From: Natator depressus
Taxonomy: Eukaryota
Assembly (NCBI RefSeq): GCF_965152275.1
Contig: NC_134246.1
Span: 34,532,151-34,596,150 of the forward strand
Direction: 5' to 3'
DNA length: 64,000 nucleotides
A program made the position numbers and the translations under genes. The first letter of the stretch is position 1. Each line of letters starts with the position of its first letter. The notes beneath the pieces were generated by a model. That model saw only the letters and a program-made list of their open reading frames with translations, was not told the DNA's origin and did not search any database. Below, one piece after another: positions 7,236 through 55,838 of the stretch.

Positions 7236-7294
7236 GAGGACCTGCTGGAGGCCCTGGCCGCCGAGCCGTCCCTGGTAAAGGCGTTCGGGTCCAT
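4523..7294 (-). CDS. CR1 ORF2, apurinic-like endonuclease plus reverse transcriptase (923-aa open frame). The first ~19 codons ([19 protein letters not shown]) are read from the antisense of the host exon and are not CR1.
   Basis: CR1 homology begins at [31 protein letters not shown] motifs are [32 protein letters not shown] and the YADD-type [10 protein letters not shown]. The C-terminal part reads ...[47 protein letters not shown]. Confidence 0.8.
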
Positions 7295-10734: not shown

Positions 10735-10965
10735 GGGGCCCCCTAGAGGGGACAAGCCCCGTGTCCCATTTCCTGCCCCCCTTAGCCAGCCAATCCCCAC
10801 CCTGGGGCTGGATGGGAGCCGGTGCCCCCTAGAGGGGAAAGGCCCCATGTTTCCGCCCCACTTGAGGGGAAAGGTTCTGTGTCCCATTCCTCACCCCCCA
10901 GCACCAGCCAGTCCCCTGCCCTGGGGCCGGTTTGGGGCCGGTGCCCGCCCTAGGAAAAGGGCCCT
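10735..10965. repeat. GC-rich intronic tandem repeat with a ~75-bp unit, about 3 copies. A related array lies in inverse orientation at 9770-9900.
   Basis: Units of the form ccctagaggggacaagccccgtgtcccatttcctgcccccttagccagccaatccccaccctggggctggatgggagccggtgc. They generate spurious overlapping ORFs. Confidence 0.55.
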
Positions 10966-11769: not shown

Positions 11770-11898
11770 CTATGTCCCATTCCCTGCCCCCTTAAGCCAG
11801 CCAGTCTCAGCCTGCGGCGGGTCAACGCTGGCACTCCCTCAAAGGACAACGGCACCGTGTCCCATCTCTCAGTGTCTGGGGGTGTCTGTTCTGTTCTC

Positions 11899-13804: not shown

Positions 13805-14596
13805 TGTCAGGGTTCCTTCCCCACTGAATTCCGGGGTACAGATATGGGGACCCGCATGAAAGACCCCCTAAGCTTATTCTTACCAGCTTAGGTTAAAACT
13901 TTCCCAAGGCACAGATTCCTTTCTTGCCTTGGGATCGCTGCCACCACCAAGTGATTTAACAGACAATCAGGGAAAGGACCACTTGGAGTCCTAGTCCCCC
14001 AAAATATTCCCCCAAGCCTACACCCCCTTTCCTGGGGAAGGCTTCAGCATATATCCTCACCAATAGGTTACGAAGGGACTACAGACCCAAACCCCTGGGT
14101 CTTAGAACAATGGAAAAATCAGTCAGGTTCTTAAAAAGAAGGATTTTATTTAAAGAGAAAAAGGTAAAAGAATCACCTCTGTAAACTTAGGCTAGTAGTT
14201 AACCTTACAGAGTAGCAGTAAATTCAAAGAGCACAGAGGAACCCCCTCTAGCCTTCATTTCAAAGTTACAACAAAACAGGGATAAACCTCCCTCTAGCAA
14301 AGGGAAAATTCACAAGTTGAGAAAACAAAGATAAACTAATATGCCTTGCCTGGCTGTTACTTACAAGTTTGAAATAAGAGACACTTGTTTAGAAAGATTT
14401 GGAGAACGTGGATTGATGTCCGAAGAGCGAACGGCCACAGAAACAAAGAACCCAAAACAAAGCCTCTCCCAACCCCAGATTTGAAAGTATCTTTTGTCCC
14501 TATTGGTTCGTTTGGTCAGGCACCAACCAGGTTACTTGAGCTTCTTAACCCCTTACAGGTAAGGAGGCATTTTAGGCTACCCTTATGGTTATGACA
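13805..14596 (+). mobile_element. Solo LTR of a diverged relative of the same family (TGTCAGGG...TTATGACA).
   Basis: tgtcagggttccttccccactgaattccggggtacagatatggggacccgcatgaaagaccccctaagcttat ... gagcttcttaacc...ttatggttatgaca, colinear with the LTRs at 43106-43930 and 49034-49838. Confidence 0.6.
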
Positions 14597-15086
14597 CACC
14601 ACCTGCTCCTCCAGCCAGAGTTTAGATGGGACCCGCTCCTGTAGCCCAAGTCTGGGGTGCAGGAGCCTAAGCACAGGTGCGGATTGGGGCCTATAAGTGC
14701 TGCCAGGTTGGGTGGGACAGATTCTGGGAGGTTTCAGCCCATGATATGAGTGTTCATTAAAGATGAATCTTTCATGCCTGGCATCTCCAGAGTGAACCTG
14801 GAGGGCTGGCGACTCTAGGGCCTATGCGCGGTGCCTGTGATGAAGGGTTGGCACAGAGGGCAGCCTATTCCGGACTGCACCATCTTTTGTACTACTTTCC
14901 GGCCAGCTGCCCTGCCAGGACACCGTGCTGACCGACCGTCGCTGAGAGCCATCCAGACTCCAGCCGGGGCCATCAGCATTCAGTGTCTCCTCCTGCAGCC
15001 CCCTCCAGATAATCATGGACCGGGGCCTGTAAAGGGAGGGGAAGACCAGCATGATAAATTGGGATGAACTTCATCCTTTGTACTGA

Positions 15087-24155: not shown

Positions 24156-25316
24156 GTGAGTGATGAGGACATGGACACAGACTTCTATCAAAGCAGGGGC
24201 CCTGGCAATGTGGGCATCATGGTGCTAAAGGGGCAGGTTCATGCGGTGGAACGCCGATTCTGGGCTTGGGAAACAAGCACAGACTGGTGGGATGGCATAA
24301 TGTTGCAGGTCTGGGACGATTCCCAGTGGTTGCGAAACTTTCGAATGCGTAAGGGCACTTTCATGAAACTTTGTGACTTGCTTTCCCCTGCCCTGAGGCA
24401 CAAGAATACCAAGATGAGAGCAGCCTTCACAGTTGAGAAGCGAGTGGCGATAGCCCTGTGGAAGCTTGCAATGCCAGACAGCTACTGGTCAGTCGGGAAT
24501 CAATTTGGAGTGGGCAAATCTACTGTGGGGGCTGCTGTGATGCAAGTAGCCAACGCAGTCAAAGATCTGCTGATATCGAGGGTAGTGACCCTGGGAAATG
24601 TACAGGTCATAGTGGAGGGCTTTGCTGCAATGGGATTCCCTAACTGCGGTGGGGCCATAGATGGAACCCATATCCCTATCTTGGCACCAGAGCACCAAGC
24701 CGGCGAGTACATAAACCGCAAGGGGTACTTTTCAATAGTGCTGCAAGCTCTGGTGGATCACAAGGGATGTTTCACCAACATCAATGTGGGATGGCCAGGA
24801 AAGGTACATGACGCTCACATCTTCAGGAACTCTGGTCTTTTTCAAAAGCTGCAAGAAGGGACTTTATTCCCAGACCAGAAAATAACCATTGGGGATGTTG
24901 AAATGCCTATATGTATCCTTGGGGACCCAGCCTACCCCTTAATGCCATGGCTTATGAAGCCATACACAGGCACCCTGGACAGTAGACAGGAGCTGTTCAA
25001 CTACAGGCTGAGCAAGTGCAGAATGGTGGTAGAATGTGCATTTGGACGTTTAAAAGCGCGCTGGTGCAGTTTACTGACTCGGTTAGACCTCAGCGAAACC
25101 AATATTCCCACTGCTATTACTGCTTGCTGTGTGCTCCACTATATCTGTGAGAGTAAGGGGGAGATATTTATGGTGGGGTGGGAGGTTGAGGCAAATCCTC
25201 TGGCTGCTGGTTTCGCACAGCCAGACACCAGGGTGGTTAGAAGAGCACAGGAGGGCGCGGTGCTCATCAGAGAAGCTTTGAAAACCAGTTTCATGACTGG
25301 ACAGGCTACGGTGTGA
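24156..25316 (+). CDS. Harbinger DDE transposase (DDE_Tnp_4 / HARBI1-like), intact 386-aa ORF.
   Basis: Candidate catalytic residues are AIDGTHIPILAPEH (D), ILGDPAYPLMPWLMKPY (D) and VVECAFGRLKARW (E), with the usual spacing. There are no internal stops. Confidence 0.75.
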   Translation: MSDEDMDTDFYQSRGPGNVGIMVLKGQVHAVERRFWAWETSTDWWDGIMLQVWDDSQWLRNFRMRKGTFMKLCDLLSPALRHKNTKMRAAFTVEKRVAIALWKLAMPDSYWSVGNQFGVGKSTVGAAVMQVANAVKDLLISRVVTLGNVQVIVEGFAAMGFPNCGGAIDGTHIPILAPEHQAGEYINRKGYFSIVLQALVDHKGCFTNINVGWPGKVHDAHIFRNSGLFQKLQEGTLFPDQKITIGDVEMPICILGDPAYPLMPWLMKPYTGTLDSRQELFNYRLSKCRMVVECAFGRLKARWCSLLTRLDLSETNIPTAITACCVLHYICESKGEIFMVGWEVEANPLAAGFAQPDTRVVRRAQEGAVLIREALKTSFMTGQATV

Positions 25317-26625: not shown

Positions 26626-27297
26626 TTAAAAGGTACACTCACCAGAGGTCCCTTCTCTTCCTGGCAGGTCTGGGAGGCAGCCTTGGGTGGGTCCAGGGGT
26701 GACTGCCTCCAGGTCCAGGGTGAGAAACAGTTCCTGGCTGTCGGGAAAACCGGTTTCTCCGCTTGCTTGCTGTGAGCTATCTACAACTTCATCATCATCA
26801 TCTTCCTCGTCCCCAAAACCTGCTTCTGTGTTGCCTCCATCTCCATTAAAGGAGTCAAACAACAAGGCTGGGGTAGTGGTGGCTGAACCCCCTAAAATGG
26901 CATGCAGCTCATCATAGAAGCAGCATGTTTGGGGCTCTGAATCGGAGCAGCCGTTTGCCTCTCTGGTTTTCTGGTAGGCCTTAAGTTTCACGCGGCATTG
27001 CTTCAGGTCCCTGTTATGGCCTCTGTCCTTCATGCCCTGGGAGATTTTGACAAATGTTTTGGCATTTCGAAACCTGGAACGGAGTTCTGATAGCACGGAT
27101 TCCTCTCCCCATACAGAGATAAGATCCCATACCTCCCATTTGGTCCATGCTGGAGCTCTTTTGCGATTCTGGGACTCCGTCGTGGTCACCTCTGCTGATG
27201 AGCTCTGGCCAGCGTGACAAGCTGCAGGTGAACATGCAAACAGGAATTTGAAATTCAAAAGTTCACGGGCCTTTTCCTGTCTACCTGGCCAGTGCAT
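26626..27297 (-). CDS. Harbinger Myb/SANT-like DNA-binding protein, first exon (223-aa open frame). A GTGAGT splice donor on the minus strand at 26637-26642 suggests a downstream exon.
   Basis: RKRAPAWTKWEVWDLISVWGEESVLSELRSRFRNAKTFVKISQGMKDRGHNRDLKQCRVKLKAYQKTREANGCS is Myb/SANT-like, followed by an acidic tail (DEEDDDDEVVD). The minus-strand sequence reads gacctctg|gtgagtgtacc. Confidence 0.6.
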   Translation of the reverse strand: MHWPGRQEKARELLNFKFLFACSPAACHAGQSSSAEVTTTESQNRKRAPAWTKWEVWDLISVWGEESVLSELRSRFRNAKTFVKISQGMKDRGHNRDLKQCRVKLKAYQKTREANGCSDSEPQTCCFYDELHAILGGSATTTPALLFDSFNGDGGNTEAGFGDEEDDDDEVVDSSQQASGETGFPDSQELFLTLDLEAVTPGPTQGCLPDLPGREGTSGECTF

Positions 27298-27742: not shown

Positions 27743-28638
27743 TAAGTTAAAGGTCACAACCATATATGGACCTCATGCCTTAACTCATCTTGAAAACCTG
27801 TCCCTTAGTCTCTCTGTGCCTCAGTGTCCTTTGTGACATGAGAACAATAGCTGTTCCCTGCACCGCATCAGTGTTGTGAGGATAAATGCATTGAAGCCTG
27901 TGAGATGCTCCGATACTGTGGTGGTCATATAACTGAGTGGACTCAGGGAGCACAGCACAGGAGACCCCGGTTCATATTGCTTGCGCATCATTTGGATCCA
28001 GTCCTTTCCTCTATTCACATGAGTCATTCCATTGAAGTCACATGACTAAAGTGATCCCCTTTCCTACATGTTTAATGGATCAGGCCTTTGGCCCCTGATA
28101 TTTGGATTTTTGGATTATTATTATGATTATTAGTATTACAATTGGTGATAATTTAATTATAAGACAATATTAATAACTATGATATACTCAAAGTTTAAAT
28201 TGTCCCTGGAGCTTTAAAAGACATAAAAGGAAGAGAGGGCCATCTCCTCAGTCAGTGTTAATTGGAATCAATAAGCCAAGTCCCCATCTGGTGCAAAATC
28301 AGCCATAGCACCACTGGAGTCAGTTGGGCTAGATTTGCAACTGGTGTAAGTTGGATATACGAATGATATATGAATCCTGGTCCTAGGTCATCGGGGGGGC
28401 TCCTCTGGTAGCAGCCTTCTCTGGAACAGCAGGGCAGCGATCAGCATCCTGGTCTTGGGTAGTGGGAAAGGTTCTCTGGGGGTCCTCCTCCTGAAGAGCT
28501 GGTGAGATGTTGCTCCAGGCTGTGAGGTCCCAAAGAGCCATCCTTGTTGCACCAGGTCTCCCTGCAGAGGTATCCCAGGGCTTTTCTTCAGCCAGGTGCT
28601 GATTCTTTCATCCTTGCTGGTGGTCCATGTCACAGAAC

Positions 28639-31600
28639 CATAGAATCATAGAATATCAGGGTTGGAAGGGACCTCAGGAGGTCATCTTGTCCAACCCCCT
28701 GCTCAAAGCAGGACCGATCCCCGACTAAATCATCCCAGGCAGGGCTTTGTCAAGCCTGACCTTAAAAACTTCTGGGGAAGGAGATTCCACCACCTCCCTA
28801 GTGAAAGCATTCCAGTGTTTCACCACCCTCCTAGTGAAAAAGTTTTTCCTAATATCCAACCTAAATCTTCCCCACTGCAACTTGAGACCATTACTCCTTG
28901 TTCTGTCATCTGCTACCACTGAGAACAGTCTAGAGCCATCCTCTTTGGAACCCCCTTTCAGGTAGTTGAAAGCAGCTATCAAATCCCCTCTCATTCTTCT
29001 CTTCTGAAGACTAAACATCCCCAGTTCCCTCAGCCTCGCCTCATAAGTCATGTGTTCCAGTCCCCTAATCATTTTTGTTGCCCTCCGCTGAACTCTTTCC
29101 AATTTTTCCACATCCTTCTTGTAATGTGGGGCCCAAAACTGGACACAGTACTCCAGATGAGGCCTCACCAATGTCGAATAGAGGGGAACTATCACGTCCC
29201 TCGATCTCCTGGCAATGCCCCGACTTATACATCCCAAAATGCCATTGGCCTTCTTGGCAACAAGGGCACACTGTTGACTCATATCCAACTTCTCGTCCAC
29301 TGTAACCTCTAGGTCCTTTTCTGCAGAACTGCTGCCGAGACATTCGGTCCCTAGTCTGTAGCGGTGCATGGGATTCTTCCGTCCTAAGTGCAAGACTCTG
29401 CACTTGTCCATCAGATTTCTTTTGGCCCAATCCTCCAATTTGTCTAGGTCCCTCTGTATCCTATCCCTACCCTCCTGCGTATCTACCACTCCTCCCAGTT
29501 TAGTGTCATCTGCAAACTTGCTGAGGGTGCAATGCACACCATCCTCCAGATCATTAATGAAGATATTGAACAAAACCGGCCCCAGGACTGACCCCTGGGG
29601 CACTCCACTTGATATCGGCTGCCAACTAGACATGCAGCCATTGATCACTACCCGTTGAGCCCGACAATCTAGCCAGCTTTCTATCCACCTTATAGTCCAT
29701 CCAGCCCATACTTCTTTAACTTGCTGGCAAGAATACTGTGGCAGACCGTGTGAAAAGCTTTGCTAAAGTCAAGGAACAACACGTCCACTGCTTTCCCTTC
29801 ATCCACAGCGCCAGTTATCTCGTCATAGAAGGCAATTAGATTAATCAAGCATGACTTGCCCTTGGTAAATCCATGCTGACTGTTCCTGATCACTTTCCTC
29901 TCCTCTAAGTGCTTCAGAATTGATTCCTTGAGGACCTGCTCCATGATTTTTTCAGGGACTGAGGTGAGGCTGACTGGCCTGTAGTTCCCAGGATCCTCCT
30001 CCTTCCCTTTTTTAAAGATGGGCACTACATTAGCCTTTTTCCAGTCATCTGGGACCTCCCCCGATCGCCATGAGTTTTCAAAGATAATGGCTAATGGTTC
30101 TGCAATCACATCCGCCAACTCCTTTAGCACTCTCAGATGCAACGCATCCGGCCCCATGGACTTTTGCTTTTTGCTTTTCTAAATAGTCCTGAACCACTTC
30201 TTTCTTCACAGAGGGCTGGTCACCTCCTCCCCATGCTGTGCTGCCCAGTGCAGCAGTCTGGGAGCTGACCTTGTTCGTGAAGACAGAGGCAAAAAAAGCA
30301 TTGAGTACATTAGCTTTTTCCACATCCTCTGTCACTAGGTTGCCTCCCTCATTCAGTAAGGGGCCCACACTTTCCTTGACTTTCTTCTTGTTGCTAACAT
30401 ACCTGAAGAAACCCTTCTTGTTACTCTTAACATCTCTCGCTAGCTGCAACTCCAGGTGTGATTTGGCCTTCCTGACTTCACTCCTGCAAGCCTGAGCAAT
30501 ATTTTTATACTCATCCCTGGTCATTTGTCCAATCTTCCACTTCTTGTAAGCTTCTTTTTTGTATATAAGAGCAGCAAGGATTTCACTGTTAAGCCAAGCT
30601 GGTCGCCTGCCATATTTACTATTCTTTCTAGACATCGGGATGGTTTGTCCCTGTAACCTCAATAAGGATTCTTTAAAATACAGTCAGCTCTCTTGGACTC
30701 CTTTCCCCCTCATGTTATTCTCCCAGGGGATCTTGCCCATCAGTTCCGTGAGGGAATCAAAGTCTGCTTTTCTGAAGTCCAGGGTCTGTATTCTACTGCT
30801 CTCCTTTCTTCCTTTTGTTAGGATCCTGAACTTGACCATTTCATGGTCACTGCCTCCCAGGTTCCCATCCACTTTTGCTTCCCCTACTAATTCTTCCCGG
30901 TTTGTGAGCAGCAGGTCAAGAAGAGCTCCGCTCCTAGTTGGTTCTTCCAGCACTTGTACCAGGAAATTGTCCCCTACATTTTTCAAAAAGTTCCTGGATT
31001 GTCTGTGCACCGCTGTATTGCTCTCCCAGCAGATATTAGGGTGATTGAAGTCTCCCATGAGAACCAGGGCCTGCGATCTAATAACTTCTGCGAGTTGGCG
31101 GAAGAAAGCCTCGTCCACCTCCTCCCCCTGGTCTGGTGGTCTATAGTAGACTCCCACCACGACATCAGCCTTGTTGCTCAGACTTCTAAACTTAATCCAG
31201 AGACTCTCAGGTTTTTCTGCAGTTTCATACTTGAGCTCTGAGCAGTCATACTGCTCCCTTACATACAGTGCAACTCCCCAACCTTTTCTGCCCTTCCTGT
31301 CCTTCCTGAACAGCTTATATCCATCCATGACAGTACTCCAGTCATGTGAGTTATCCCACAAAGTCTCTGTTATTCCAATCACATCATAATTCCTTGACTG
31401 TGCCAGGACCTCCAGTTCTCCCTGCTTGTTTCCCAGGCTTCGTGCATTTGTATATAGGCACTTGAGGTAACCTGATGATCGCCCCTCTTTCTCAGTATGA
31501 GGCAGGAGCCCTCCCCTCTCACGCGCTCCTGCTCGTGCCTCCTCCCGGTATCCCACTTCCCCACTTACCTCAGGGCTTTGGTCTCCTTCCCCCGGTGAAC

Positions 31601-37630: not shown

Positions 37631-38575
37631 ATGAGCTATACCAGTGAAACTGCACAGAGGAATCACAGCACAGTGACCCAACTCATTTATCTTGGCTTCT
37701 CCCAGAATCCAGTGACACGAGCAATACTTTGCGTAGGTTTCTCCATTATCTACACCATCTCCCTGATGGGCAACAGCATCATCAACCTCATCACAATGCT
37801 GGACTTGGCCCTCCACACCCCTATGTATTTCTTCCTCTGGAACCTGTCCTTTTTGGAGAGCTGCTACATCTCTGTCACCATCCCCAAGATGCTGGTCAAC
37901 TTTGTCTCTGAGGAGAGGACCATCTCCTTCACTGGGTGTACCATCCAGATGCATTTCGTCCTTTCTCTTGGGACAGCAGAGTGCTACCTGCTGGCCGCCA
38001 TGGCATACAGGGCCATCTGCTCCCCTCTGCATTACCCCACCATTATGAATCCCAGAGCCCGTGCCAAGATGGCTGCTGTCTGCTGGCTCTGTGGAATCCT
38101 GATGCCCATGAGCAAAGTGATTTGTATCTTCTCCTTGCCCTACTGTGGGCCCAACAAGATCAACCACTTCTTCTGCGACATCCCCCCTGTGCTGAAGCTG
38201 GCCTGTGGGGACACCTCCAGGAGCGAGGTCTTCATTGTACCGATCAGCCTAATGATCTCTGTCATCCCCTTCCTAATGGTGCTGGTGTCCTATGCCTGCA
38301 TCCTCTACACCATCCTGAAGACAACTTTATCCGAGGGAAGGCACAAAGCTTTCTCCACCTGCTCCTCCCACCTCACCGCAGTCATCTTGTTCTATGGTTC
38401 AACCTGTGCTATGTACCTGCAGCCTAAGTCCAGCCACGTAGCGGACATGGACAGAGTGGTGGCCCTATTTCATACCGTCGTCATCCCCACGTTAAACCCT
38501 ATGATCTACAGCCTAAGGAACCAGGAGGTGAAGGCTGCTCTGAAGAGACTGAGGGGGAGGAAAAGATTTTCATGA
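37631..38575 (+). CDS. Olfactory receptor (class II-like), single exon, 314-aa open frame. The DRY motif is deleted (MAY-RAIC where MAYDRYVAIC is expected), so it may be non-functional.
   Basis: LGFS, PMYFFLWNLSFLESCY, KAFSTCSSHL, PTLNPMIYSLRNQEVKAALKRL and an N-terminal NHS glycosylation site are present. At 38003-38017 the sequence reads gcatacagggccatc, encoding AYRAI. Confidence 0.8.
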   Translation: MSYTSETAQRNHSTVTQLIYLGFSQNPVTRAILCVGFSIIYTISLMGNSIINLITMLDLALHTPMYFFLWNLSFLESCYISVTIPKMLVNFVSEERTISFTGCTIQMHFVLSLGTAECYLLAAMAYRAICSPLHYPTIMNPRARAKMAAVCWLCGILMPMSKVICIFSLPYCGPNKINHFFCDIPPVLKLACGDTSRSEVFIVPISLMISVIPFLMVLVSYACILYTILKTTLSEGRHKAFSTCSSHLTAVILFYGSTCAMYLQPKSSHVADMDRVVALFHTVVIPTLNPMIYSLRNQEVKAALKRLRGRKRFS

Positions 38576-39672: not shown

Positions 39673-39957
39673 CAACTTTCTATTGTGTCAGGGGTGCTCT
39701 CCCCCGCTCTGCCCCAGGCCCTGCCCCCACTCCTCCCCTTCCCCAAAGGCCCCATGCCTTCCCCGCCTCTTTCTGCCCTGCTCTGCCATGCCCTGCCTCA
39801 TCCCACCCTGTTCTGCCCCCTCCCCTGAGTACACCCTGCCCTCGCTCCTCCCCGCTCTGTCCCAGTGCCTCCTGCATGCTGCTAAACAGATGATCACTGG
39901 GGAGAAAGGGGAAAGTTGATTGGGGATGGGTGATGAGCACCCACCATATTTTTTCAA

Positions 39958-41835
39958 CCCCTCTGCTCAAAACAGGACTAACCCCAACTAAATCATCCCA
40001 GCCAGGGCTTTGTCAAGATGGGCCTTAAAAAACCTCTAAGGATGGAGCTTCAACCACCTCCCTAGGTAACCCATTCACGTGCTTCACCACCCTCCTAGTG
40101 AAATAGTGTTTTCTAATATCCAACCTAGACCTCCCCCACTGCAACTTGAGACCATTGCTCCTTGTTCTGTCATCTGCCACCACTGAGAACAGCCAAGTTT
40201 CACCCTCGTCGGAGCCCCCCTTCAGGAAGTTGAAGGCTGCTATCAAATCCCCCCTCACTCTTCTCTTCTATAGACTAAATAAGCCCAGTTCCATCAGTCT
40301 CTCCTCGTAAATCATGTGCTCCAGCCCCCTGATTGCCCTCCACTGGACTATCTCTAATTTGTCCACATCCTTTTTGTAGTGGGGGCCCAAAACTGGATGC
40401 ATACTTCAGATGTGGCCTCACTAGTGCTGAATAGAGGGGAATAATCCCTTCCCTCCATCTGCTGGCAATGCTCCTACTAATGCAGCCCAATATGCCGTTA
40501 GCCTTCTGGGCAACAACAGCACACTGCTGACTCATATCCAACTTCTCATCCACTGTAATCCCCAGGTCCTTTTCTGCAGAACTGCCGCTTAGCCAGTCGG
40601 TCCCCGGACTGTAGCAGTGCATGGGAATCTTCTGTTCTAAGTGCAGGACTCTGCACTTGTGCTTGTTGAACCTCATCGGATTTCTTTTGGCCCAATCCTC
40701 CAATTTGTCTAGGTCACTGTGGACCCTATCCCTACCCTCCAGCGTATCTACCTCTCCCCCCACCCTTCCCCGATCAATTGCTGAGGGTGCAATCCATCCC
40801 ATCATCCAGATCATTAATGAAGATGTTGAATAAAACCGGCCCCAGGAATGACCCTTGGGGCATTCCACTTGATACTGGCTGCCAACTAGACATCAAGCCG
40901 TTGATCACTACCCATTGAGCCCGACAATCTAGCCAGCTTTCTATTCACCTTATAGTCCATTCATCCAATCCATACTTTTTTAACTTGCTGGCAATAATAC
41001 TGTGGGAGACTGTAACAAAAGCTTTGCTAAAGTCAAGGTATATCATGTCCACCACTTTCCCCATATCCACAGAGTCAGTTATCTCATCATAGAAGGCAAT
41101 CAGGTTGGTCAGGCGTGACTTGCCCTTGGTGAATCCATGTTGACTGTACCTGATCACCTTCCTCTCCTCCAAGTGCTTCAAAATGGATTCCTTGAGGACC
41201 TGCTCCATGATTTTTCTGGGGACAGAGGTGAGGCTGATCGGTCTGTAGTTCCCCAGATTCTCCTTCTTCCCTTTTTAAAAGATGGGCACTACATTAGCCT
41301 TTTTCCATCATACAGGACGTGCCCAGATCACCACCAGTTTTCAAAGATAATGGCCAATAGTTCTGCAATCACATCAGCCAACTCCATCAACACCCTCGGA
41401 TACATTGCATCCAGCACCCTGGACTTGTGCATGTCCAGCTTTGTTAAATAGTCCTTAACCTGTGCTTTCACGACTGAGGGCTGCTCACCTCCTCCCCATA
41501 CTGAGCTGCCCAGTGCAGCAGTCTAGGAACTTACCTTATCTGTGAAGACTGAGGCAAAAAAAGCATTGAATACTTCAGCTTTTTCACATCATCTGTCACT
41601 AGGTTGCAGTAAGGGGCCCACACTTTCCCTAACCTTCTTCTTGTTGCTATCATACCTGTAGAAACCCTTCTTGTTACCCTTTCCATCCCTTGTTAGCTGC
41701 AACTCCAACTGTGCTTTGGACTTCCTGATTACACCCCTGCATGCTTGAGCAATATTTTTATACTTGTCCCTAATCATCTGTCCAAGTTTCCACTTCTTGT
41801 AAGATTCCTTTTTGTGTTTAAGATCACTGAAGATT
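39958..41835 (-). mobile_element. CR1 LINE copy 3, degraded. ORF2 RT pieces only, truncated at both ends.
   Basis: 40025-40258 reads [14 protein letters not shown]...[11 protein letters not shown]. 40275-40868 reads KCRVLHLEQKIPMHCY...[16 protein letters not shown]. 40945-41208 reads [30 protein letters not shown]...[13 protein letters not shown]. Confidence 0.7.
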
Positions 41836-43105
41836 TCTCTGTTAAGTGTTACCTAGCAGCTCTGTGTTCTTGGGAAACCAGGGGTGCAGTACCCAGCCTT
41901 TCTGACTCAGGAAACACCCTCCCCCACCCCGCAGCCTCTGCTTGAACCAAATCTGTATCAGAAGAAAGACTTAAAACAAGCAATGAAAAGGCAGTGGGAG
42001 GCACACCTAAACCCCTGGGATAAGGATGACAGGATTAAGGAAACGCTCCCAGCCTCATTTGCATCGAAGATGGGACAAGGTGGCATCTCCATTAGCTTGC
42101 AGAATGGAGAACAGAGATTCCAAGGCAAGAACCACATGGAACTCTGGGACCAGAAAAGCAGGGAAGCACTGCATGATGTGGGATCTCTGCTCCAGATGTT
42201 AATGAACCCACTCCTGCACACACCCAGTTCAGTAGTTATCAGACCAATTCTAAAAATAAATCCTTTATTGGTGTCCAAAATAGTGAAGCTTCCTAATTGC
42301 ATTGTGAGCTCCCTCCAAGGAACACTGCCCAAAGCCCCGAATGATCAACTGCCATGGTCTAGCCTGAACAAAACAACTTTGGTATATTCCCTTGTTTACA
42401 GATAAACAAATCGAGTGTTCTCCCTTGTGGAATGTCCTTACTCCGAGTTTGAAGTAACAAGCCAGAGGCAGCTTTATTATGAGCAACTGCAATTGTATGG
42501 GAGAGTACATACGGGCAGGGATTCCCCTCCCTAGGCAGGTCTCCGTTAGATAAACAATTAGGGCAACCATTTATACCTTTTGTTACAGACAATAATGATC
42601 AACAACCGCATCTTGTTTATACATATTCCTTCTGATATCTTACTTTTCTCAGCAGTTCCTGCTACAGTCTGTCTTCCATTATTATCTAACACAAGGTAGA
42701 AAAACAGTATCTCTTACAGGTTTTTTTTTGTTCCACTCACTTTCCACTTGCCCAGGCCCTGTCTGAAATCTTGCATTATTAGAGCTAGTGTTAGCCTGAC
42801 TCTTACTTTATTCCTAGAAGTCAAGATATCTGCATTCAAATTCCCTTTATCCTTTTCTCTACTTCCACACTCTTGAACCATTGTTGTTTCTCTACAAAAA
42901 CACCTACCCATGATCAAGTAGGTGTTCAGATGCCTGGATCCAAAATCTGCATCAGTTTCATTGGGACTTCATCTTCTCCTGACTGATCATGCTGGGGGCT
43001 CTGCCTGTCTCCAGCACTCCGGACCCTCAGCCACCAACACCATCTGGGACCTGCAATCGATTCAAGCTTCATGGAGTGGTGAGAACCCAGCTTTCTCTCT
43101 TTCTC

Positions 43106-43930
43106 GGTGTAGCCTTCTGACCCTGTTTCAGGGTTCCCTCGCCACTCTGAACTCTAGGGTACAGATGTGGGGACCTGCATGAAAGACCCCCTAAGCTTAT
43201 TTTTATCAGCTTATGTTAAAAAGTTTCCGAAGGCACAAATTCCACCTTGTCCTTGAACAGTATGCTGCCACCACCAAGTGATTTAGACAAAGAACAGGGA
43301 AAGGACCACTTGGAGTTCCTATTTCCCCAAAATATCCCCCCAAGCCCTTACACCCCCTTTCCTGGGGAGGCTTGAGAATAAACAAGATGAACACAAACCA
43401 GCCTTGGATTTTTGAGACCCAAAAACCCCAATCAGATTCTTAAAAAAACAGAACTTTATTAGAAGAACAAAAAAAGATAAGAGAACAACTCTGTAAGATC
43501 AGAATGGAAGATAATCTTACAGGCAGTCAGATTCAAAACATAGAGAATCCCTCTAGGCAAAACCTTAAGTTACAAAAAGACACAAAAACAAGAATACACA
43601 TTTCCTCCGGCACAGCGAATTTCACAAGCCAAAACAAAGAAAACCTAGCACATTTTCCAGCTAGATTACTTACTAACTTTACAGGAGTTGGAGGGCTTGC
43701 ATCCTTGATCTGTTCCTGGCAAAGGTATTACTCAGACAGACAAAAGCCTTTTCCCCCCCTCCAGATTTGAAAGTATTTTGTTCCCTCATTGGTCATTTTG
43801 GGTCAGGTGCCAGCTAGGTTACCTGAGCTTCTTAACCCTTTACAGGTAAAAGGACTTTGCCTCTGGCCAGGAGGGATTTTATAACACTGTATACAGAAAG
43901 GCAGTTACCCTTCCCTTTATATTTATGACA
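43106..43930 (-). repeat. 3' LTR (in element sense) of the Gmr1-like element.
   Basis: tgtttcagggttccctcgccactctgaactctagggtacagatgtggggacctgcatgaaagaccc ... ccctttatatttatgaca. Confidence 0.7.
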
Positions 43931-44092
43931 TGGCTCGCAAATCACAGATAGTGTCAGACAGCCGGTTCCACACTGGCTGTGATTTCTTCCTGGAGCTCTA
44001 GGAGAAAACAGAGTTAATAAGACACATGCACCTCTAGAGATACTACTGATTATATAAAAACTAACAATAATTTCCAAATTTCAAGGAAGATT

Positions 44093-44521
44093 TTAACCAG
44101 TTGATTCTGGGAAACTTTCACTGGAGAGTGCATCAGCCGCCTTGTTAGAAGTTCCTGAAATGTGTTGTATTTCAGAATCAAAATCTTGGAGAGCTAAACT
44201 CCACCGAAGAAGTTTTTTGTTATTGTCCTTGACGGTATGAAGCCACTTCAGCGCAGAATGGTCAGTTTGCAGGTGGAAACGCCATCGCCAAACGTATGGG
44301 CGTAGCTTTTCCAGAGCGTACGTGATGGCGTAACATCCCCTTTTGCTGATTGACCAGTGGCTTTCCCTCTCAGACAGTTTTTTGCTGAGAAACACGACAG
44401 CATGGAATTCTTGATCCGGTCCTTCCTGCATTAAAACTGCTCCTACACCACGCTCAGATGCATTTGTGGTTACTAGGAACGGATTGTCAAAGTCTGGGGC
44501 CTTTAGCACAGGGTCAGACAT
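44093..44521 (-). CDS. RNase H domain.
   Basis: FLVTTNASERGVGAVLMQEG...HAVVFLSKKLSERESHWSISKRGCYAITYALEKLRPYV...LQTDHSALKWL. Confidence 0.65.
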   Translation of the reverse strand: MSDPVLKAPDFDNPFLVTTNASERGVGAVLMQEGPDQEFHAVVFLSKKLSERESHWSISKRGCYAITYALEKLRPYVWRWRFHLQTDHSALKWLHTVKDNNKKLLRWSLALQDFDSEIQHISGTSNKAADALSSESFPESTG

Positions 44522-44691
44522 GAGTGTCTCTTTAAGCTGGTTAAAGGCCTTCTGACACTCTTCAGTCCACTGAACTGCATTTGGCTGGGGTTTTTTGGTT
44601 AGGTCTGTTAGTTGGGCAGCAATTTGGCTGTATTGTGGTACAAATCACTGTAATATCTGACCAAGCCTAAGAAGGATTGGACCTGTTTTTT

Positions 44692-45342
44692 TTACTTTGG
44701 GACAGGCCACTTTTGGATAGCATCCACTTTGGCCTGTAGGGGGTTGATGGTTCCTTGACCCACCTGGTATTCAAGGTAAGTCACTCTGTTTAGACCTACT
44801 TGACACTTAGCCTTAACAGTTAGTTCTGCCTCCCTTTTGCTCTTGAAGGCTTTTTGTAGATGTTCCAGGTGTTCTGCCCAGGAATCCGAAAATATGGCCA
44901 CATCGTCAAGGTAGGCGACTGCATATTCTCCCAATCCCTCCAGGAGACCATTTACAACTTTTTGGAAGGTGGCGGGTGCATTTCGCAGCCCGAAAAGGAG
45001 CACATTAAATTCATACAGCCCAACATGTGTGATGAAGGCTGACCTTTCCTGGGCTGATTCATCTAGAGGTACCTGCCAGTACCCCTTGGTTAAGTCCAAG
45101 GTAGAGATGAACTGGGCCCGTCCCAGTTTCTCTAATACGTCATCTGTGCGTGGCATTGGATAGTTGTCTGGGCAAGTTACAGCATTTAGCTTACGGTAGT
45201 CCACGCAAAAACGTATCTCCCCATCTGGTTTGGGCACTACAACTACTGGAGATGCCCATGCACTGCCAGAGGGGTGGATTATACCCATCTGCAGCATATC
45301 CTGGATCTCCCGTTCTATAGCAGTTTTAGCTTGAGGAGACAC
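44692..45342 (-). CDS. Reverse transcriptase (Ty3/Gypsy type).
   Basis: WASPVVVVPKPDGEIRFCVDYRKLNAVT, LDLTKGYWQVPL, LLFGLRNAPATFQ, AYLDDVAIFS. Confidence 0.75.
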   Translation of the reverse strand: MSPQAKTAIEREIQDMLQMGIIHPSGSAWASPVVVVPKPDGEIRFCVDYRKLNAVTCPDNYPMPRTDDVLEKLGRAQFISTLDLTKGYWQVPLDESAQERSAFITHVGLYEFNVLLFGLRNAPATFQKVVNGLLEGLGEYAVAYLDDVAIFSDSWAEHLEHLQKAFKSKREAELTVKAKCQVGLNRVTYLEYQVGQGTINPLQAKVDAIQKWPVPK

Positions 45343-45620
45343 CCAGTAAGGTTGGTCTCTAAATGGGTGAGCATTACCTGTGTCAATGGAGTGTTATGCC
45401 CGTTCAGTCAGTCCTGGGGTGGCTGAGAACATTGACGCGTAGCTAGTGCACAGCTCCTTGATCTGCTGTCACTGCATACGCCCAAGGGTCATGGAGAGGT
45501 TCACCTCTTCCACATCACCAGCACTTTTCCCTTCGTAGTAGACACCTTCAGGCCACTCAGCGTCACCTCCTCCCTGGGCTGTAAACTGACAAACCTTTAA
45601 TTCTCTGGAATAAAAGGGAT

Positions 45621-46857
45621 TTAGAGAATTAATGTGGTACTCCTTAGGCTTTCAGTCTGAGGTGGGGAATGCTTTGAGATAACAGCTCCCAGGCACTCTT
45701 GGACCATGAATGGCCCTTCCCACGATGCTTCCATTTTATGGGCCTGGAGCGCTTTCAAGACCATGACCTGGTCTCCTACTTGGAAGAAACGCTCTCTGGC
45801 ATGTTTATCATACCAGGCTTTTTGCTCTTTTTGAGAGTCTTGTAGATTTTCTTTAGCAAGGGCTAAAGAGGTTAGGAGGGTGTTTTGTAGTTTGGGTACA
45901 AAGTCCAGAATGTTAGTTCCTGGAGAAGGTGTAAACCCCTCCCATTGCTGCTTCACCAACTGTAATGGCCCCTTAACCTCATGGCCATATACAAGTTCAA
46001 ATGGTGAAAACCCTAAACTGGGATGTGGTACAGCTCTGTAGGCAAAGAGCAACTGCTGCAACACTAGGTCCCAATCATTGGAGTGCTCATTTACGAATTT
46101 ACATATCATGGCCCCCAAAGTTCCATTAAACTTCTCCAGCAGGCCATTTGTTTGATGGTGGTAAGGAGTGGCAACCAAGTGATTCACCCCATGAGCCTCC
46201 CAAAGGCTTTCCATTAGTTCCTGCATCTGTAAGGATGTAGGAGGGCCAACCTACCTTGGCAAAAATGTCTGTTAGTGCCTGGCACACACTTTTAGCCCTG
46301 ATGTTGCTTAGAGCTACTGCTTCCGGCCATCGAGTGGCAAAATCCATGAAAGTCAGTATGTACTGCTTTCCTCTGGGTGTCTTTTTCGGAAAAGGACCCA
46401 GAATATCCACAGTTACTTGCTGAAATGGAACCTCAATGATGGGGAGTGGCTGGAGAGGGGCTTTGACCTGGTCTTGGGGTTTTCCCACTCTTTAGCACAC
46501 CTCACAAGAGTGGACATAGGTAGAAACATCCTTGCCCATTCCCTCCCAGTGGAACAACTTTCCCAAATGGTCTTTGGTTCTGTTCACCCCGGCATGGCCA
46601 CTAGGATGATCGTGGGCTAAGCTCAAGAGCTTGGCCTGGTACTTAGTTGGAACTACCAACTGTCTCTGAGGATGCCAGTCGTCCTGGTGTCCACCAGAAA
46701 GAGTTTCCTTGTATAAAAGTTCTCTTTCTACAACAAACCTGGATTGATTAGAAGAGCTGAGAGGCGGTGGGTTACTCCGTGCCATGCTCCAAGCTCTCTG
46801 GAGGCTTTCATCTGCTTCCTGTTCGGTCTGGAACTGTTCCCTTGATGTTGGAGACAT
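45621..46857 (-). CDS. Integrase (HHCC zinc finger plus rve catalytic core plus C-terminal part), three overlapping ORF pieces. It lies UPSTREAM of the RT in element sense.
   Basis: LAHDHPSGHAGVNRTKDHLGKLFHWEGMGKDVSTYVHSCEVC is the HHCC finger. VDILGPFPKKTPRGKQYILTFMDFATRWPEAVALSNIRAKSVCQAL...ILTDAGTNGKP is the D,D core. ATPYHHQTNGLLEKFNGTL carries the E. Confidence 0.7.
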
Positions 46858-47525
46858 CAGTTCTTAATTGGATTGTGGACCTGGGCTTGGTCCCTCTGGA
46901 AGCAATGCAGGTGATGGGCTGTTTCCGTTGACTGTGAACCACTCTCTGCTGGTGCACTATGTTGGGGTTCAGGCTCTGGCTGAGCCTCTTGTGTAGGGTT
47001 ATCTGCTGCTGCCAATGCAGGTTCGGTGGGGCCCTCTGGTGTTGGGGTTGCAAGCACTGGATTCAGTGCTGGCAATGGTTCTGGTTCTGGGACTGGCTCT
47101 GTCTGGGTCTCTGGGACTGGATCCACTACTGCTGTTGCAGACGTTGGCATGGGGTCTGGTTCCATCACCTCTGACTGGGTCCTGGTAGAAGTCTCCAGAA
47201 CAGAGCTAGGTGTGACAGCTTGCTTCACCTGGCTGCAGTTGACCATTCCCACCCTCTTAGCTAGCTTCCCATGATTGGCCAGGTCTTCCCCCAACAGCAT
47301 GGGGATGGGATAATCATCATAGAGTGCAAAAGTCCATGTTCCTGACCAGCCCTTGTACTGGACAGGCAACTTGGCTGTAGGCAAGTCAAAAGAGTTTGAC
47401 TTGAAGGGTTGAATCGTTACTTGGACCTCTGGGTCAATTAAATTGGGGTCCACTAAGGAAGCCGTGGATAGCTGACACTTGTGCTCTGGTGTCCCTCCAT
47501 GCTGTAACCTTCTTCCCACCCACAT
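46857..47525 (-). CDS. pol segment with protease-like region and a Pro-rich linker (222-aa open frame). The catalytic D-S/T-G is not clearly recognisable.
   Basis: LVDPNLIDPEVQVTIQPFKSN...YDDYPIPMLLGEDLANHGKLAKRV, followed by a PEPEP-rich linker. Confidence 0.4.
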   Translation of the reverse strand: MWVGRRLQHGGTPEHKCQLSTASLVDPNLIDPEVQVTIQPFKSNSFDLPTAKLPVQYKGWSGTWTFALYDDYPIPMLLGEDLANHGKLAKRVGMVNCSQVKQAVTPSSVLETSTRTQSEVMEPDPMPTSATAVVDPVPETQTEPVPEPEPLPALNPVLATPTPEGPTEPALAAADNPTQEAQPEPEPQHSAPAESGSQSTETAHHLHCFQRDQAQVHNPIKN

Positions 47526-47899
47526 TCACAGTTTCCCTCTGCTCTGACGGTATCTGGGAGGCATCTGGGCCTGAGGACCTTTGGTGTGACTCCAGTGCAA
47601 TGAACTGTAATCTGTTGGGGTTCTGGGGAAGTTGGCCTTTACATGCCCCAGCTTGTTACATTTAAAACATCGCCCAGCTGACTGGTCACTGGGGTGAGGT
47701 GGGTTGCTGGAGAACAGTGTGGTGGGACAATAAAGTGTCTGGGATTTTCCTTGGGGTTCAGTTGGGGTCTTGGGTTGCCCCCGGTAGTAAGGTGTGGTCT
47801 GAGGGTGTCCTTTTGGTATCTGCTCAAATTGTGACCAGGGTTGTTCCTCTCTCCTCCCTCCACCCGTTTTGTTCCGGTTTGCCCCGCCTCTCTGGCGGT

Positions 47900-48907
47900 C
47901 TAGAACTGCTCATATTGATGAGCATAAGAAGCAAGACTTTCTGCTGAGTCTATTTTCTTATCCCATAAACACTGTTTTATATCATCCTCGGACATATTCA
48001 GGAATTGCTTCTGTATCATCAAATCCCACATTCCTCCAAAGCTAGTTACATCCCATCCTTTGAGCCATTTATCAAACAGATCTGTCATCTGGTTTACATA
48101 AGCCACATTACTTAGTCCAGGCCCTCTCGTAAGGGTTCAAAATTTTATTCTGTAAGTTTCAGGTGTAACTTGAAATTCTTTTAAAACAAAATCCTTGAAT
48201 TTACCATAGTCAGAAGCCTCACCAATAGGCATATTATTGAATATGTCCAGAGCTCTTTCAGTCAATTTTGCTACCAATGTGGTCATCTTGTGATTGTCAG
48301 GAATTTGATGGAGTGTGCACAGTCTCTCAAAGGTGAGAAAATATTCAGCAATATCACTGGATGCATCATACTGTGGGCATAGTCGCTCCCATTTGTGGAT
48401 TGTTGGGGAAGGATTGTTAGGGATATTCGGTATATTCTGGTGAGCCCTTGCCTTCTCTATCTCCAGTGCATGCTTCCTCTCTTTTTCCCTCTCCTCCATT
48501 TCTTTTTCTTTTGCCTCCATAGCTCTCCTGTGGGCAGCCTCCTGGGCTTTCTCTGCCTCTTTTGCTGGCGCCATATCTCTCCTGTGGGCAGCCTCTTGGG
48601 CAGCCTCCTCTGTCTTTGCCTTGGCTTTTTCTGCCTCTTTCGCTGCCTCTATAGCGAGTCATTTTATTTCGACCAGTTTCTGGTGTTCCTTTTCTTTCTC
48701 TTCTGCTTCCAGTCTAGCTAATTCCAGTTTCTGTTGGACATTGCTTTCTGTCATCCTAGCCTCTCTGTGTTTAACTAGCTTGACCCAAAAGTTAGAAAAA
48801 AACCCTTGTTTGTGAATTTCCAATTCGCTGTGCTGTAACCTAATACCTTTGCCTCTGATAGCTGTTCCCAGCCTACAGAGAAATCCTTTTGTAAAAAAAC
48901 CTAACAC
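47900..48907 (-). CDS. gag fragments. There are three same-frame ORFs separated by stops, a Lys/Glu-rich coiled-coil part, and a C-terminal SCAN-like capsid domain at 47900-48106.
   Basis: The SCAN-like part reads MTDLFDKWLKGWDVTSFGGMWDLMIQKQFLNMSEDDIKQCLWDKKIDSAESLASYAHQYEQ and resembles the SCAN LLVLEQFL...EL block. The coiled-coil part reads RAMEAKEKEMEEREKERKHALEIEKARA. A degenerate zinc knuckle (CFKCNKLGHVKANF) lies at ~47590-47640. Confidence 0.55.
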
Positions 48908-49012
48908 CTATGACTCCAGACAAAGAGATAGAAAAAGCTCTAGCTGCTTTCAGTTAAAAAAAAACCTCTTCAGGTCAGTGCTTTTGGTTCAAAATGATCT
49001 CTGGTTCAAAAT

Positions 49013-49033
49013 GATCCCACCACTCTGCCACCA
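49013..49033 (-). promoter_or_regulatory. Putative tRNA primer-binding site (sense TGGTGGCAGAGTGGTGGGATC) directly internal to the 5' LTR.
   Basis: It starts with TGG immediately after the LTR terminal ...TGACA in element sense. Confidence 0.35.
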
Positions 49034-49838
49034 TGTCAAGGTTCCTTCCCCACTCTGAACTCTGGAGTACAGATGTGGGGACCCGCATGAAAGATCCCCA
49101 TATCTTATTTCTACCAGCTTAGGTTAAAAACTTCCTCAAGGCACAAATCTCTATTTGTCCTTGGTCTAGGAATGCTGCCACCACCAAGTGATTTGACAAA
49201 GAACCAGGGAAAAGGACCACTTGGAGTTCCTCTTCCCCCAGCAATCTCCCAAGCCCTTACACCCCCTTTCCTGGGGAGGATTGAAAACAAGTTGAGCACA
49301 GACCAGCTTTGGGTTCCTTAGGACCCTAAAACCCAATCAGGTTCTTAACAAACAGAACTTTATTAGAAGAACAAAACAAAGACAAAAGAAACACTCTGTA
49401 AGATTAGAATGGAAGATAATCTCACAGGCAGTCAGATTCAAAATATAGAGAATCCCTCTAGGCAAAACTTTAAGTTACAAAAAGACACAAAACTAGGAAT
49501 ACATATTCCCTCCAGCACAGTGAATTTCACAAGCCAAAACCAAGAAAATCTAATGCATTTTCTAGCTAGATTACTTACTAACTTTACAGGAGTTGGAGGG
49601 CTTGCATCCTTGATCTGTTCCCGGCAAAGTTATCACACAGACAGACAGAACCCTTTGTTCCCCCCACTCCAGATTTGAAAGTATCTTGTCCCCTCATTGG
49701 TCATTTTGGGTCAGGTGCCAGCTAGGTTACCTGAGCTTCTTAACCTTTTACAGGTGAAAGGATTTTGCCTGTGGCCAGGAGGGATTTTATAGCACTGTAT
49801 ACAGAAAGGTGGTTACCCTTCCCTTTATATTTATGACA
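49034..49838 (-). repeat. 5' LTR (in element sense) of the Gmr1-like element.
   Basis: tgtcaaggttccttccccactctgaactctggagtacagatgtggggacccgcatgaaagatcccc ... ccctttatatttatgaca. Confidence 0.7.
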
Positions 49839-50114
49839 GGAGAGCCAGAGCCTGTCAACTCCTTTTGACAGGAGCCTTTTGTGTCTATTCAGAGAGGTCA
49901 GATTGGATCAGTGCTCTGGCCACCTTGGGCTCTCCACCTATCATGAGCTGTACATCAGAGCTTCCCAGCAGGGAGAGAGCTCACAGCCCCTTTTTCCAAC
50001 AACCCTGGCCCAGCCCCTGGCACTAAAAGGGGGTTTCCATCAGTTTGTGGAGCCTGTGGCACAAGGATGCACAGTTCTGATCCCACGAGCAGGACACACA
50101 CACACTTAGGTCAC

Positions 50115-54842: not shown

Positions 54843-55838
54843 TTATGGGTCTTCTTGATGAATCCTCGCTTGGCCTCCAGTTACTAATGGAGACAGCCAA
54901 TTAGGCCTTTTACTTATAATTTTCCTCAGAGCTTCTTTGACCTCCTTGTTTCTCAGACTGTATATAATGGGGTTAACCATAGGGGTAATCACCGTGTACA
55001 GCAGGGAAAACATTTTATTTAGGCCTGGAGACTGGCTGGCCGTGGGAACCGCATAAATAATGCCCAAGGTCCCATAGAACAAGGTCACCACGATGAGATG
55101 GGAGGAGCAGGTGGAGAAGGCTTTCTGTTTTCCCATGGTAGAAGGGACCCTGAGAATGGTGGACAGGATGTTGGCATAGGATACTACAGTCAGCAGAAAT
55201 GGGACCATGGTCACAACAGAGGCCATGATGAATGTGGTTGTCTTGGCCACATGGGCGTCAGCACAGGAGAGCTTTATGACCGGTGCTAGGTCGCAGAAGA
55301 AATGGTCGATTTCATTGGAGGCACAGAATGGCAACCTGAAGGTCAAGACAATGGTTAGTATGGGAGTCAGGAACCCACTTATCCAAGAACCTGCTGCCAT
55401 CTGCAGGCAAACCTTGGAGTTCATGATGGCCATGTAACGGAGTGGGCTGCAGATGGCTACGTACCGGTCATAAGACATCACCGCCAGGAGAAAACACTCA
55501 GTGATAGCCATGGAACTGAAGAAATAAAACTGGGTAATGCAGCCAAAGAAGGAGATTGCTTCATGTGCAGTAAGTAAAGTTCTTAGCATCTTGGGGGTGG
55601 TAGAAGCGGTGTACCAGATCTCGAGGAAGGAGAAATTTCCCAGGAAGAAGTACATCGGGGTGTGCAGGCTCCGGCTGTATGAGATGATGGCCAATATGAG
55701 GATGTTGCCAGCTAATGTCATGATGTAGACAGCTAGAAATAGCACAAAGAGAAGGATCTGCATCTCATGAAGATCCCCAAATCCCATCAAGATGAACTCT
55801 GCAAGGGCTGTCTGATTTCCTTCTGCTGCTCTGTCCAT
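54843..55838 (-). CDS. Olfactory receptor, single exon, intact 331-aa ORF with all canonical motifs.
   Basis: LMGFGDLHEMQ, PMYFFLGNFSFLEIWY, MSYDRYVAICSPLRY, KAFSTCSSHL, PMVNPIIYSLRNKEVKEALRKII, and an N-terminal NQT site. Confidence 0.85.
   Translation of the reverse strand: MDRAAEGNQTALAEFILMGFGDLHEMQILLFVLFLAVYIMTLAGNILILAIISYSRSLHTPMYFFLGNFSFLEIWYTASTTPKMLRTLLTAHEAISFFGCITQFYFFSSMAITECFLLAVMSYDRYVAICSPLRYMAIMNSKVCLQMAAGSWISGFLTPILTIVLTFRLPFCASNEIDHFFCDLAPVIKLSCADAHVAKTTTFIMASVVTMVPFLLTVVSYANILSTILRVPSTMGKQKAFSTCSSHLIVVTLFYGTLGIIYAVPTASQSPGLNKMFSLLYTVITPMVNPIIYSLRNKEVKEALRKIISKRPNWLSPLVTGGQARIHQEDP

Follow-up and report, generated by a model that had tools for sequence, protein, structure and literature searches.

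A degenerate, very probably Gmr1-like Ty3/Gypsy retrotransposon with integrase encoded ahead of reverse transcriptase in the sea turtle Natator depressus

The window analyzed here, a 64,000-nucleotide (nt) stretch of Natator depressus contig NC_134246.1, carries a long terminal repeat (LTR) retrotransposon on its minus strand at 43124-49838, delimited by blastn and MAFFT as a single element with one LTR pair. Very probably, it is a degenerate full-length Gmr1-like Ty3/Gypsy element of a sea turtle. Its integrase (IN) is encoded before a Gypsy-type reverse transcriptase (RT), an arrangement that a sequence-only reading of this DNA had taken to define the Gmr1 lineage and that the literature gives as the hallmark of the Gmr1 clade (PMC8220671). 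The same reading held that the SCAN domain derives from Gmr1-like gag/capsid, as is stated in two published accounts (PMC3424704; bioRxiv 10.1101/2025.03.03.638093). Gmr1-like elements are described as carrying SCAN, protease (PR), IN, RT and ribonuclease H (RNase H) in that order and as abundant in turtles (bioRxiv 10.1101/2025.03.03.638093), and a 2013 report describes turtle Gmr1 elements of full length (PMC3670739). The kind of element is already described and common in turtles, and the finding is correct but ordinary.

The coding order was obtained from three-frame translation and a Pfam search of the open reading frames (ORFs) of the window. On the minus strand, where all element features given below lie, it runs gag (coiled coil, capsid with a SCAN-like C-terminal domain (CTD), CCHC knuckle), protease, IN, RT, and RNase H, and the Pfam searches confirmed this order as proposed from the letters alone. 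Gag (47628-48754) starts at 48754 and contains three in-frame stops and one frame change, as judged from translations and from tblastn with P0001, an intact relative from Lepidochelys olivacea, and P0121, a gag relative. Its N-terminus is a Glu/Lys/Ala-rich coiled-coil region. The capsid (~47903-48410; translation, blastp) by itself matches Gmr1-like gags of frogs, amphioxus, and reptiles with E values of 1e-10 to 1e-27 (blastp). Its SCAN-like CTD (47903-48170) reads TPETYRIKF...QKQFLNMSEDDIKQCLWDKK...YEQF, and the gag C-terminal peptide quoted in the sequence-only reading is present in the window translation. After a linker follows the CCHC knuckle (47628-47669), whose final Cys is gone.

The aspartic protease (~47265-47535) has one frame change inside, and its active site has mutated from DTGA to DTRA. 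The P0001 protease reads RDTGAQVSAIH, and the amphioxus relative P0114 matches gag-asp_proteas there and also Asp_protease_2. A Pro/Glu-rich linker separates the protease from the integrase (45621-46713), which shows an HHCC zinc finger, a D,D(35)E core, and a GPY/F-type CTD, interrupted by two stops and one frame change. Pfam detected Integrase_H2C2 (8.4e-16, 46857-46492) and rve (5.7e-8, 46488-46126) in the window; the GPY/F-type part extends to ~45621, and P0001 also matches SH3_Tf2-1 and Integrase_p58_C. The RT core (44692-45342), with a YLDD motif, lies in an open 216-amino-acid ORF and matches RVT_1 at 3.3e-28. RNase H with the connection domain (44093-44521) matches RT_RNaseH (1.3e-33) and RT_RNaseH_2 (1.5e-23) and was also located by tblastn with the P0001 C-terminus. 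It is the last coding domain, its catalytic TDxS has become TNAS, and it ends in ...NKAADALS..STG and a stop ~160 nt short of the 3' LTR.

An IN before the RT could be an artefact of an IN-supplying element nested in, or joined to, an RT-supplying one, the alternative that the sequence-only reading had itself raised. The setting would suit such an event, as transposable elements abound in the region (CR1 long interspersed nuclear elements (LINEs), a Harbinger-type transposase, solo LTRs) and the full element is without a target-site duplication (TSD). However, there is just one LTR pair, and blastn detected no LTR inside the element besides it. A stitched IN-RT-RNase H query was collinear over 100% of its length with single contiguous ORFs in other genomes. 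P0001 (1521 amino acids) is 82% identical to this query and represents 1265 sequences in its 90% cluster, and full-length relatives at 43-46% identity occur in Chrysemys, Alligator, Pogona, several frogs, and Branchiostoma. Intact relatives of 1490-1622 amino acids from turtles, Xenopus, and amphioxus were tested with Pfam, and the order SCAN, CCHC, (protease), Integrase_H2C2/rve, RVT_1, RT_RNaseH was present in six of six. The ORFs of P0001 and of P0025, an integrase-less relative described below, are contiguous in genomic DNA, and that of P0001 lies between LTRs 98.4% identical to each other. By tblastn, the window copy matched P0001 at similar identity on either side of the supposed junction, 89-92% in IN and 78-84% in RT/RNase H, with ~64% in the segment from the gag C-terminus through CCHC, protease, and linker. 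The order recurs from amphioxus through frogs to reptiles, and all close RT relatives have IN ~85 amino acids upstream. Nesting was ruled out by the collinear intact relatives and retains a negligible probability. Because intact single-ORF relatives from turtles to amphioxus have the same order, IN before RT is a real trait of the lineage, and the fairly even identity to P0001 from IN through RNase H shows one element rather than two.

The order PR-IN-RT-RNase H is also that of Copia elements, which raises the question of whether the element belongs to Ty1/Copia or BEL/Pao. The best solved match of the RT-RNase H part was by far Ty3 RT (4OL8, 5e-77), together with the Ty3 Gag-Pol polyprotein, followed by caulimovirus, foamy-virus, and gamma-retroviral RTs. 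RVT_1 was matched, whereas RVT_2, the Copia model, was not; RNase H corresponds to RT_RNaseH and RT_RNaseH_2, and the integrase combines Integrase_H2C2 with a Tf2/p58-type CTD. In Pfam, neither RVT_2, Copia gag, nor Peptidase_A17 or any other BEL family was matched by window ORFs (E<=0.01) or by intact relatives (E<=0.001). An intact RT core was then compared with 1.84 billion representative proteins, and IN, RT, and RNase H were mapped in the best 150 matches. Among these 150, every single-copy match with >=50% RT identity has an integrase ending ~85 residues upstream, and the next-nearest RTs, at 30-47% identity, show the canonical Gypsy order RT-RNase H-IN, most of them being concatenated gene models.

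The RT phylogeny suggested by the sequence-only reading was built by neighbor joining (NJ). With RT cores, one bipartition grouped the window RT with 22 IN-upstream RTs to the exclusion of all 81 canonical RTs. With RT and RNase H combined (393 columns), the window RT fell in the IN-upstream clade with a bootstrap of 85/100 among 18 IN-upstream and 40 canonical sequences. Copia and BEL membership was rejected on the Pfam families, the Ty3 match, and the RT neighbors, and we give it next to no credence. With Ty3 as the best match, Copia and BEL families unmatched, and an IN-upstream NJ clade, the RT is of Ty3/Gypsy type, as had been read from its YLDD motif, and belongs to a clade defined by upstream integrase.

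The SCAN-like gag tail noted earlier was examined at the level of profile and fold. A window ORF matches Pfam SCAN at 48106-47900 (E 3.9e-5, 23.8 bits). The window gag has close relatives in Macrochelys, Malaclemys, Gopherus, Chelydra, and Natator, of which P0121 (72% identity) and P0122 (62%) pass the Pfam SCAN threshold with 33.6 and 43 bits, respectively, and the less decayed ones also match Retrotrans_gag and zf-CCHC. An AlphaFold model of P0121, computed from a 20-sequence alignment, reached a predicted local distance difference test (pLDDT) score >90 over residues 21-190. Foldseek against the Protein Data Bank (PDB) ranked SCAN domains at the top, namely those of MZF1 (2FI2), Zfp206 (4E6S), PEG3 (4BHX), and ZNF24 (3LHR), above the capsids of PNMA2, MLV, Arc, and HIV. 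For 4E6S, the template modeling (TM) score to the model was 0.81 and the root-mean-square deviation 2.0 Å. The SCAN matches had a Foldseek probability of 1.00, yet E-values of 0.009-0.07, none <=0.001. At the sequence level, no SCAN domain was matched significantly when gag was compared with PDB sequences, either as a single sequence or as a 7-sequence profile; the best match was 2FI2 at E 0.37. The profile scores of the relatives and the P0121 model, whose best matches are solved SCAN domains, support a predicted SCAN fold for the capsid CTD of the family to which the window element belongs.

The element is bounded by two 805-nt LTRs with TGTCA...TGACA termini, a 5' LTR at 49034-49838 and a 3' LTR at 43124-43930, each located by blastn and MAFFT against the other. 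The pair is 88% identical in the MAFFT alignment (p 0.117, Kimura two-parameter (K2P) distance 0.128), consistent with the 12-15% divergence estimated earlier. Of the span first proposed, 43106-49838, the end at 49838 was exact and the start lay ~18 nt too far left. Directly 3' of the 5' LTR, at 49013-49033, is the TGG-initiated motif TGGTGGCAGAGTGGTGGGATC, a putative primer-binding site (PBS) as judged by position. Its form TGGTGGCA[G/T/C]AG[T/C]GGTGGGAT and its position are kept by relatives of the element in Lepidochelys and Macrochelys, and the motif is also kept in the orthologous Chelonia and Caretta copies. We take it to resemble the complement of the tRNA-Leu 3' end, as a candidate only, since the match is imperfect with a 2-nt insertion. 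The polypurine-tract site at 43931-43945 has decayed and reads GATTTGCGAGCCA here, versus GATTTGGGGGGCG in a young relative.

Several observations weigh against the Gmr1-like assignment. The PBS-like motif was matched to no priming tRNA (no tRNA genes lie within the 64-kb window), the polypurine tract is unrecognizable upstream of the 3' LTR, and the full element lacks a TSD, with TCTCC and GGGTC as its flanks in sense orientation. The SCAN score of the window falls below the gathering score of 27 because of decay, and on the RT core alone the IN-upstream clade had a bootstrap of just 52/100. Gmr1 membership is argued from the architecture, from published descriptions, and from an IN-upstream RT clade of anonymous sequences, as the trees contain no named Gmr1 reference such as Gadus morhua Gmr1 or Anolis Gmr30. 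The missing TSD concerns the history of the copy, by decay or recombination, and leaves its family membership untouched.

Compared with intact P0001, the window copy has accumulated at least 5 changes of frame, together with 11 in-frame stops (tblastn). With these lesions and the mutated protease, RNase H, and zinc-knuckle motifs, the copy is dead, having neither an intact gag-pol ORF nor intact catalytic motifs. This state also bears on whether the locus is instead a Gmr1-derived host gene of the SCAN-ZNF, SCAND3/ZBED9, GIN1, or KRBA2-like kind. Gmr1 has been reported to have given rise to GIN1, GIN2, KRBA2, and SCAND3, relatives of the element are automatically named 'Gypsy retrotransposon integrase-like protein 1', and the locus has been kept in three sea-turtle genera. 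However, LTRs and a PBS are present, stops and frame changes run throughout the domains, and the closest 90% cluster is a multi-copy family of 1265 sequences. The cross-species identity of 96.9-98.7% is the level of the surrounding non-coding DNA. A domesticated gene was rejected on the LTRs, the destroyed ORF, and the multi-copy family, and is in our judgment extremely improbable.

The insertion is shared by other sea turtles. It is orthologous, at 98.7% identity, in Chelonia mydas and, at 96.9%, in Caretta caretta, where the loci are collinear with the window across the 5' LTR and 5 kb of internal sequence. Therefore, the insertion is older than the divergence of the living cheloniids. A Macrochelys locus (L002) was rejected as an orthologue because its two related copies are arranged differently. 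The orthologous Terrapene flank is ~90% identical and matches as far as the outer 5' LTR edge (49834-49838). When Terrapene carolina L008 18210-18240 is set against window 49834-49860, homology ends at ...CTGGCTCTCCTGTCA, 5 nt into the LTR (TGTCA), beyond which Terrapene has unrelated sequence and then a CR1 in opposite orientation. The next 2.7 kb of Terrapene matches neither the element nor the 3' flank in the window, and there is no clean empty site there.

That the copy is old, as the sequence-only reading stated from its LTRs, is right; the LTR divergence itself is a poor clock here. At 0.117-0.128, it is about fourfold that between Natator and Caretta (3.1%) and no lower than the flank divergence between Natator and Terrapene (~10%), though the element is unseen in Terrapene. 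Additionally, the K2P distance between the two LTRs (0.128) is about the same as those separating each of them from a solo LTR at 10965 in the same window (0.120 and 0.140). Since there is no TSD, the LTR pair is as diverged as from this solo LTR, and the divergence is no less than that between Natator and Terrapene, the LTR clock is unreliable for this copy, and an age in years derived from it is unjustified.

A chimera formed by homologous recombination of two neighboring copies, with one LTR from each, may account for these figures; we regard it as a serious possibility, although a doubtful one. In that case, the LTR divergence does not date the insertion. A chimera would fit the unequal flanks (TCTCC vs GGGTC), while a nearby solo LTR has a perfect duplication, and also the equal distances to an unrelated solo LTR and an LTR divergence that matches or exceeds that of the Terrapene flank, where homology nevertheless stops at the LTR edge. 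On the other hand, the Terrapene data cover 2.7 kb past the site, perhaps with lineage-specific insertions, and absence there falls short of a clean empty site. The figures could also be explained by faster LTR decay or a mutated short duplication, and the even internal identity to P0001 shows no visible breakpoint.

Relatives of the window copy illustrate the state of the wider family. The autonomous relative L001 1536-8645 of Lepidochelys olivacea contains the intact 1521-amino-acid gag-pol ORF of P0001 between its near-identical LTRs, and the Gmr1-like family appears to have been recently active in sea turtles. The 3' LTR of L001 is followed by a 435-nt inverted partial LTR that is 100% identical. 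Compared with L001, the DNA of the window copy is 88% identical from just past the capsid to the 3' LTR boundary and 66-78% identical in the gag N-terminus, and no DNA similarity was detectable between the capsid at window 47865-48404 and L001 3252-3743. In protein, the capsid of the window copy is 27% identical to P0001 and 33.5% identical to frog Gmr1-like capsids, whereas its pol is 82-85% identical to P0001 and 44-45% identical to frogs. Two Macrochelys copies (L002 7930-13409 and 22427-27867) are collinear with the window copy including the capsid, at 82%. Because pol is near P0001 while the capsid is nearer to frogs, and DNA similarity is lost exactly at the capsid, the window copy may belong to an old turtle-wide Gmr1-like subfamily, with the incongruence reflecting exchange of the capsid module between lineages; we put the likelihood of this somewhat below even. 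Host factors targeting capsids could conceivably have driven such an exchange.

Dozens of sea-turtle proteins of ~1125 amino acids (P0025; P0022-P0066 and others) equal P0001 minus exactly the integrase. An in-frame 396-amino-acid deletion, with the junction ...SSSNRSR|ELKVCQF..., leaves an intact gag-PR-RT-RNase H ORF. One such contiguous ORF, at L003 1066-6838 (Lepidochelys olivacea OZ222860.1), lies between LTRs that are 99.9% identical. Because these differ at 1 of 816 positions, the integrase-less derivative was mobilized very recently, presumably by integrase supplied in trans. Separately, the gene model P0073 (Chrysemys picta bellii LOC101931677 isoform X1) combines SCAN (198-278), an integrase (706-1059) 79% identical to that of the window, and a C2H2 array from 1217. 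Either annotation has produced a chimera here, or a Gmr1-like element and a zinc-finger gene are fused in the present-day genome; a true fusion would recall the proposed origin of SCAN-ZNF genes. The capsid exchange and the integrase-less derivative concern the wider family, not the domain order that first drew attention to this element. Together, the capsid/pol incongruence and the young integrase-less derivative could interest researchers of retroelement-host conflict and of the origin of SCAN zinc-finger genes.

The remainder of the window holds further repeats and genes. Two solo LTRs had been assigned to the family of the element, and this was upheld for one of them. The solo LTR at 10965-~11770 (plus strand) is 89-90% identical to the element LTRs (K2P 0.12-0.14; blastn, alignment) and belongs to the same family. 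Its last ~64 nt (11705-11770) are inverted in place, between the inverted repeat GGGTC/GACCC. The solo LTR at 13805-14596 (minus strand), with ~69% identity and a K2P of 0.42, belongs to a related divergent subfamily and is flanked by the perfect 5-bp TSD CACCA at 13800-13804 and 14597-14601. Repeated activity at the locus therefore holds for related families, not for one family.

Three CR1-type LINE copies, at 4523-7294 (minus), 28634-31556, and 39898-41846, account for the 2-kb direct repeats D1-D10. The copy at 4523-7294 has an intact 923-amino-acid ORF2 with endonuclease and RT domains, and the other two are fragmented. An open 386-amino-acid ORF at 24156-25316 (plus) encodes a DDE_Tnp_4 (Harbinger/PIF-type) transposase and is adjoined by a 223-amino-acid Myb/SANT-like ORF at 26626-27297 (minus). 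In layout, the pair corresponds to a two-gene Harbinger DNA transposon or to a Harbinger-derived gene. The retrotransposon itself lies between genes of an olfactory-receptor cluster, with an intact 7tm_4 olfactory-receptor gene on one side at 37631-38575 (plus) and another on the other side at 54843-55838 (minus). The protein of the first receptor gene matches residue for residue in Natator depressus only, and that of the second in Natator/Chelonia records, which marks the source as a cheloniid and most likely Natator.

In its active state, the family encodes one gag-pol polyprotein comprising a coiled coil, a capsid with a SCAN-fold CTD, a CCHC knuckle, protease, IN, RT, and RNase H. From the established biology of LTR retroelements, transcription would start in the 5' LTR, and a tRNA would prime minus-strand synthesis at the TGG... 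site beside it. The polyprotein would assemble into capsids and be cut by the protease, and RT/RNase H would copy the RNA into DNA. The integrase, though encoded before the RT, would insert this copy with a 5-bp target duplication, like that of the neighboring solo LTR. The practical use is in annotation, where masking as Gmr1-like can cover the 6.7-kb block together with both solo LTRs. Gmr1-like elements, their Copia-like domain order, and their SCAN-like capsid are textbook knowledge to those who specialize in mobile DNA. Goodwin and Poulter (2002) are reportedly a source on the Gmr1-like lineage, and Emerson and Thomas (J Virol, 2011) are said to have used Gmr30 of Anolis carolinensis in working out where the SCAN domain came from.

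The Gmr1-like lineage itself (Atlantic cod Gmr1, with members in tunicates, amphioxus, fishes, frogs, and reptiles) is among the known systems closest to the window element. Both have the same Gypsy RT, the order PR-IN-RT-RNase H, a SCAN-homologous capsid CTD followed by a CCHC knuckle, and, in the intact relatives of the window element, a single gag-pol ORF. There is no difference in kind, except that the window copy is dead. Gmr30 of Anolis carolinensis likewise has a gag capsid CTD homologous to SCAN; host and family differ. The young sea-turtle element P0001/L001 is 80-95% identical to the window copy in PR, IN, RT, and RNase H protein and 88% identical in DNA, with the same PBS and LTR termini. 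However, the LTRs are just 72-75% identical, and the ORFs are intact in P0001/L001 and not in the window. Ty3 of Saccharomyces cerevisiae (4OL8, 7Q5B) is the closest solved RT/RNase H and is alike in the logic of its protease, integrase, and gag. Ty3 has the order PR-RT-RNase H-IN and a gag/pol frameshift, whereas the window element has IN before RT and its intact relatives use one ORF. The SCAN domains of vertebrate zinc-finger proteins (2FI2, 4E6S, 3LHR, 4BHX) have the same predicted fold, with TM scores of 0.74-0.81 on the SCAN chain at 18-25% identity, and share the signature PE.YR.(K/R)FR ... (E/K)QFL. In those proteins, the domain forms the N-terminus of a transcription factor, whereas here the SCAN-like domain is part of a retrotransposon capsid, between the capsid N-terminal domain and the knuckle.

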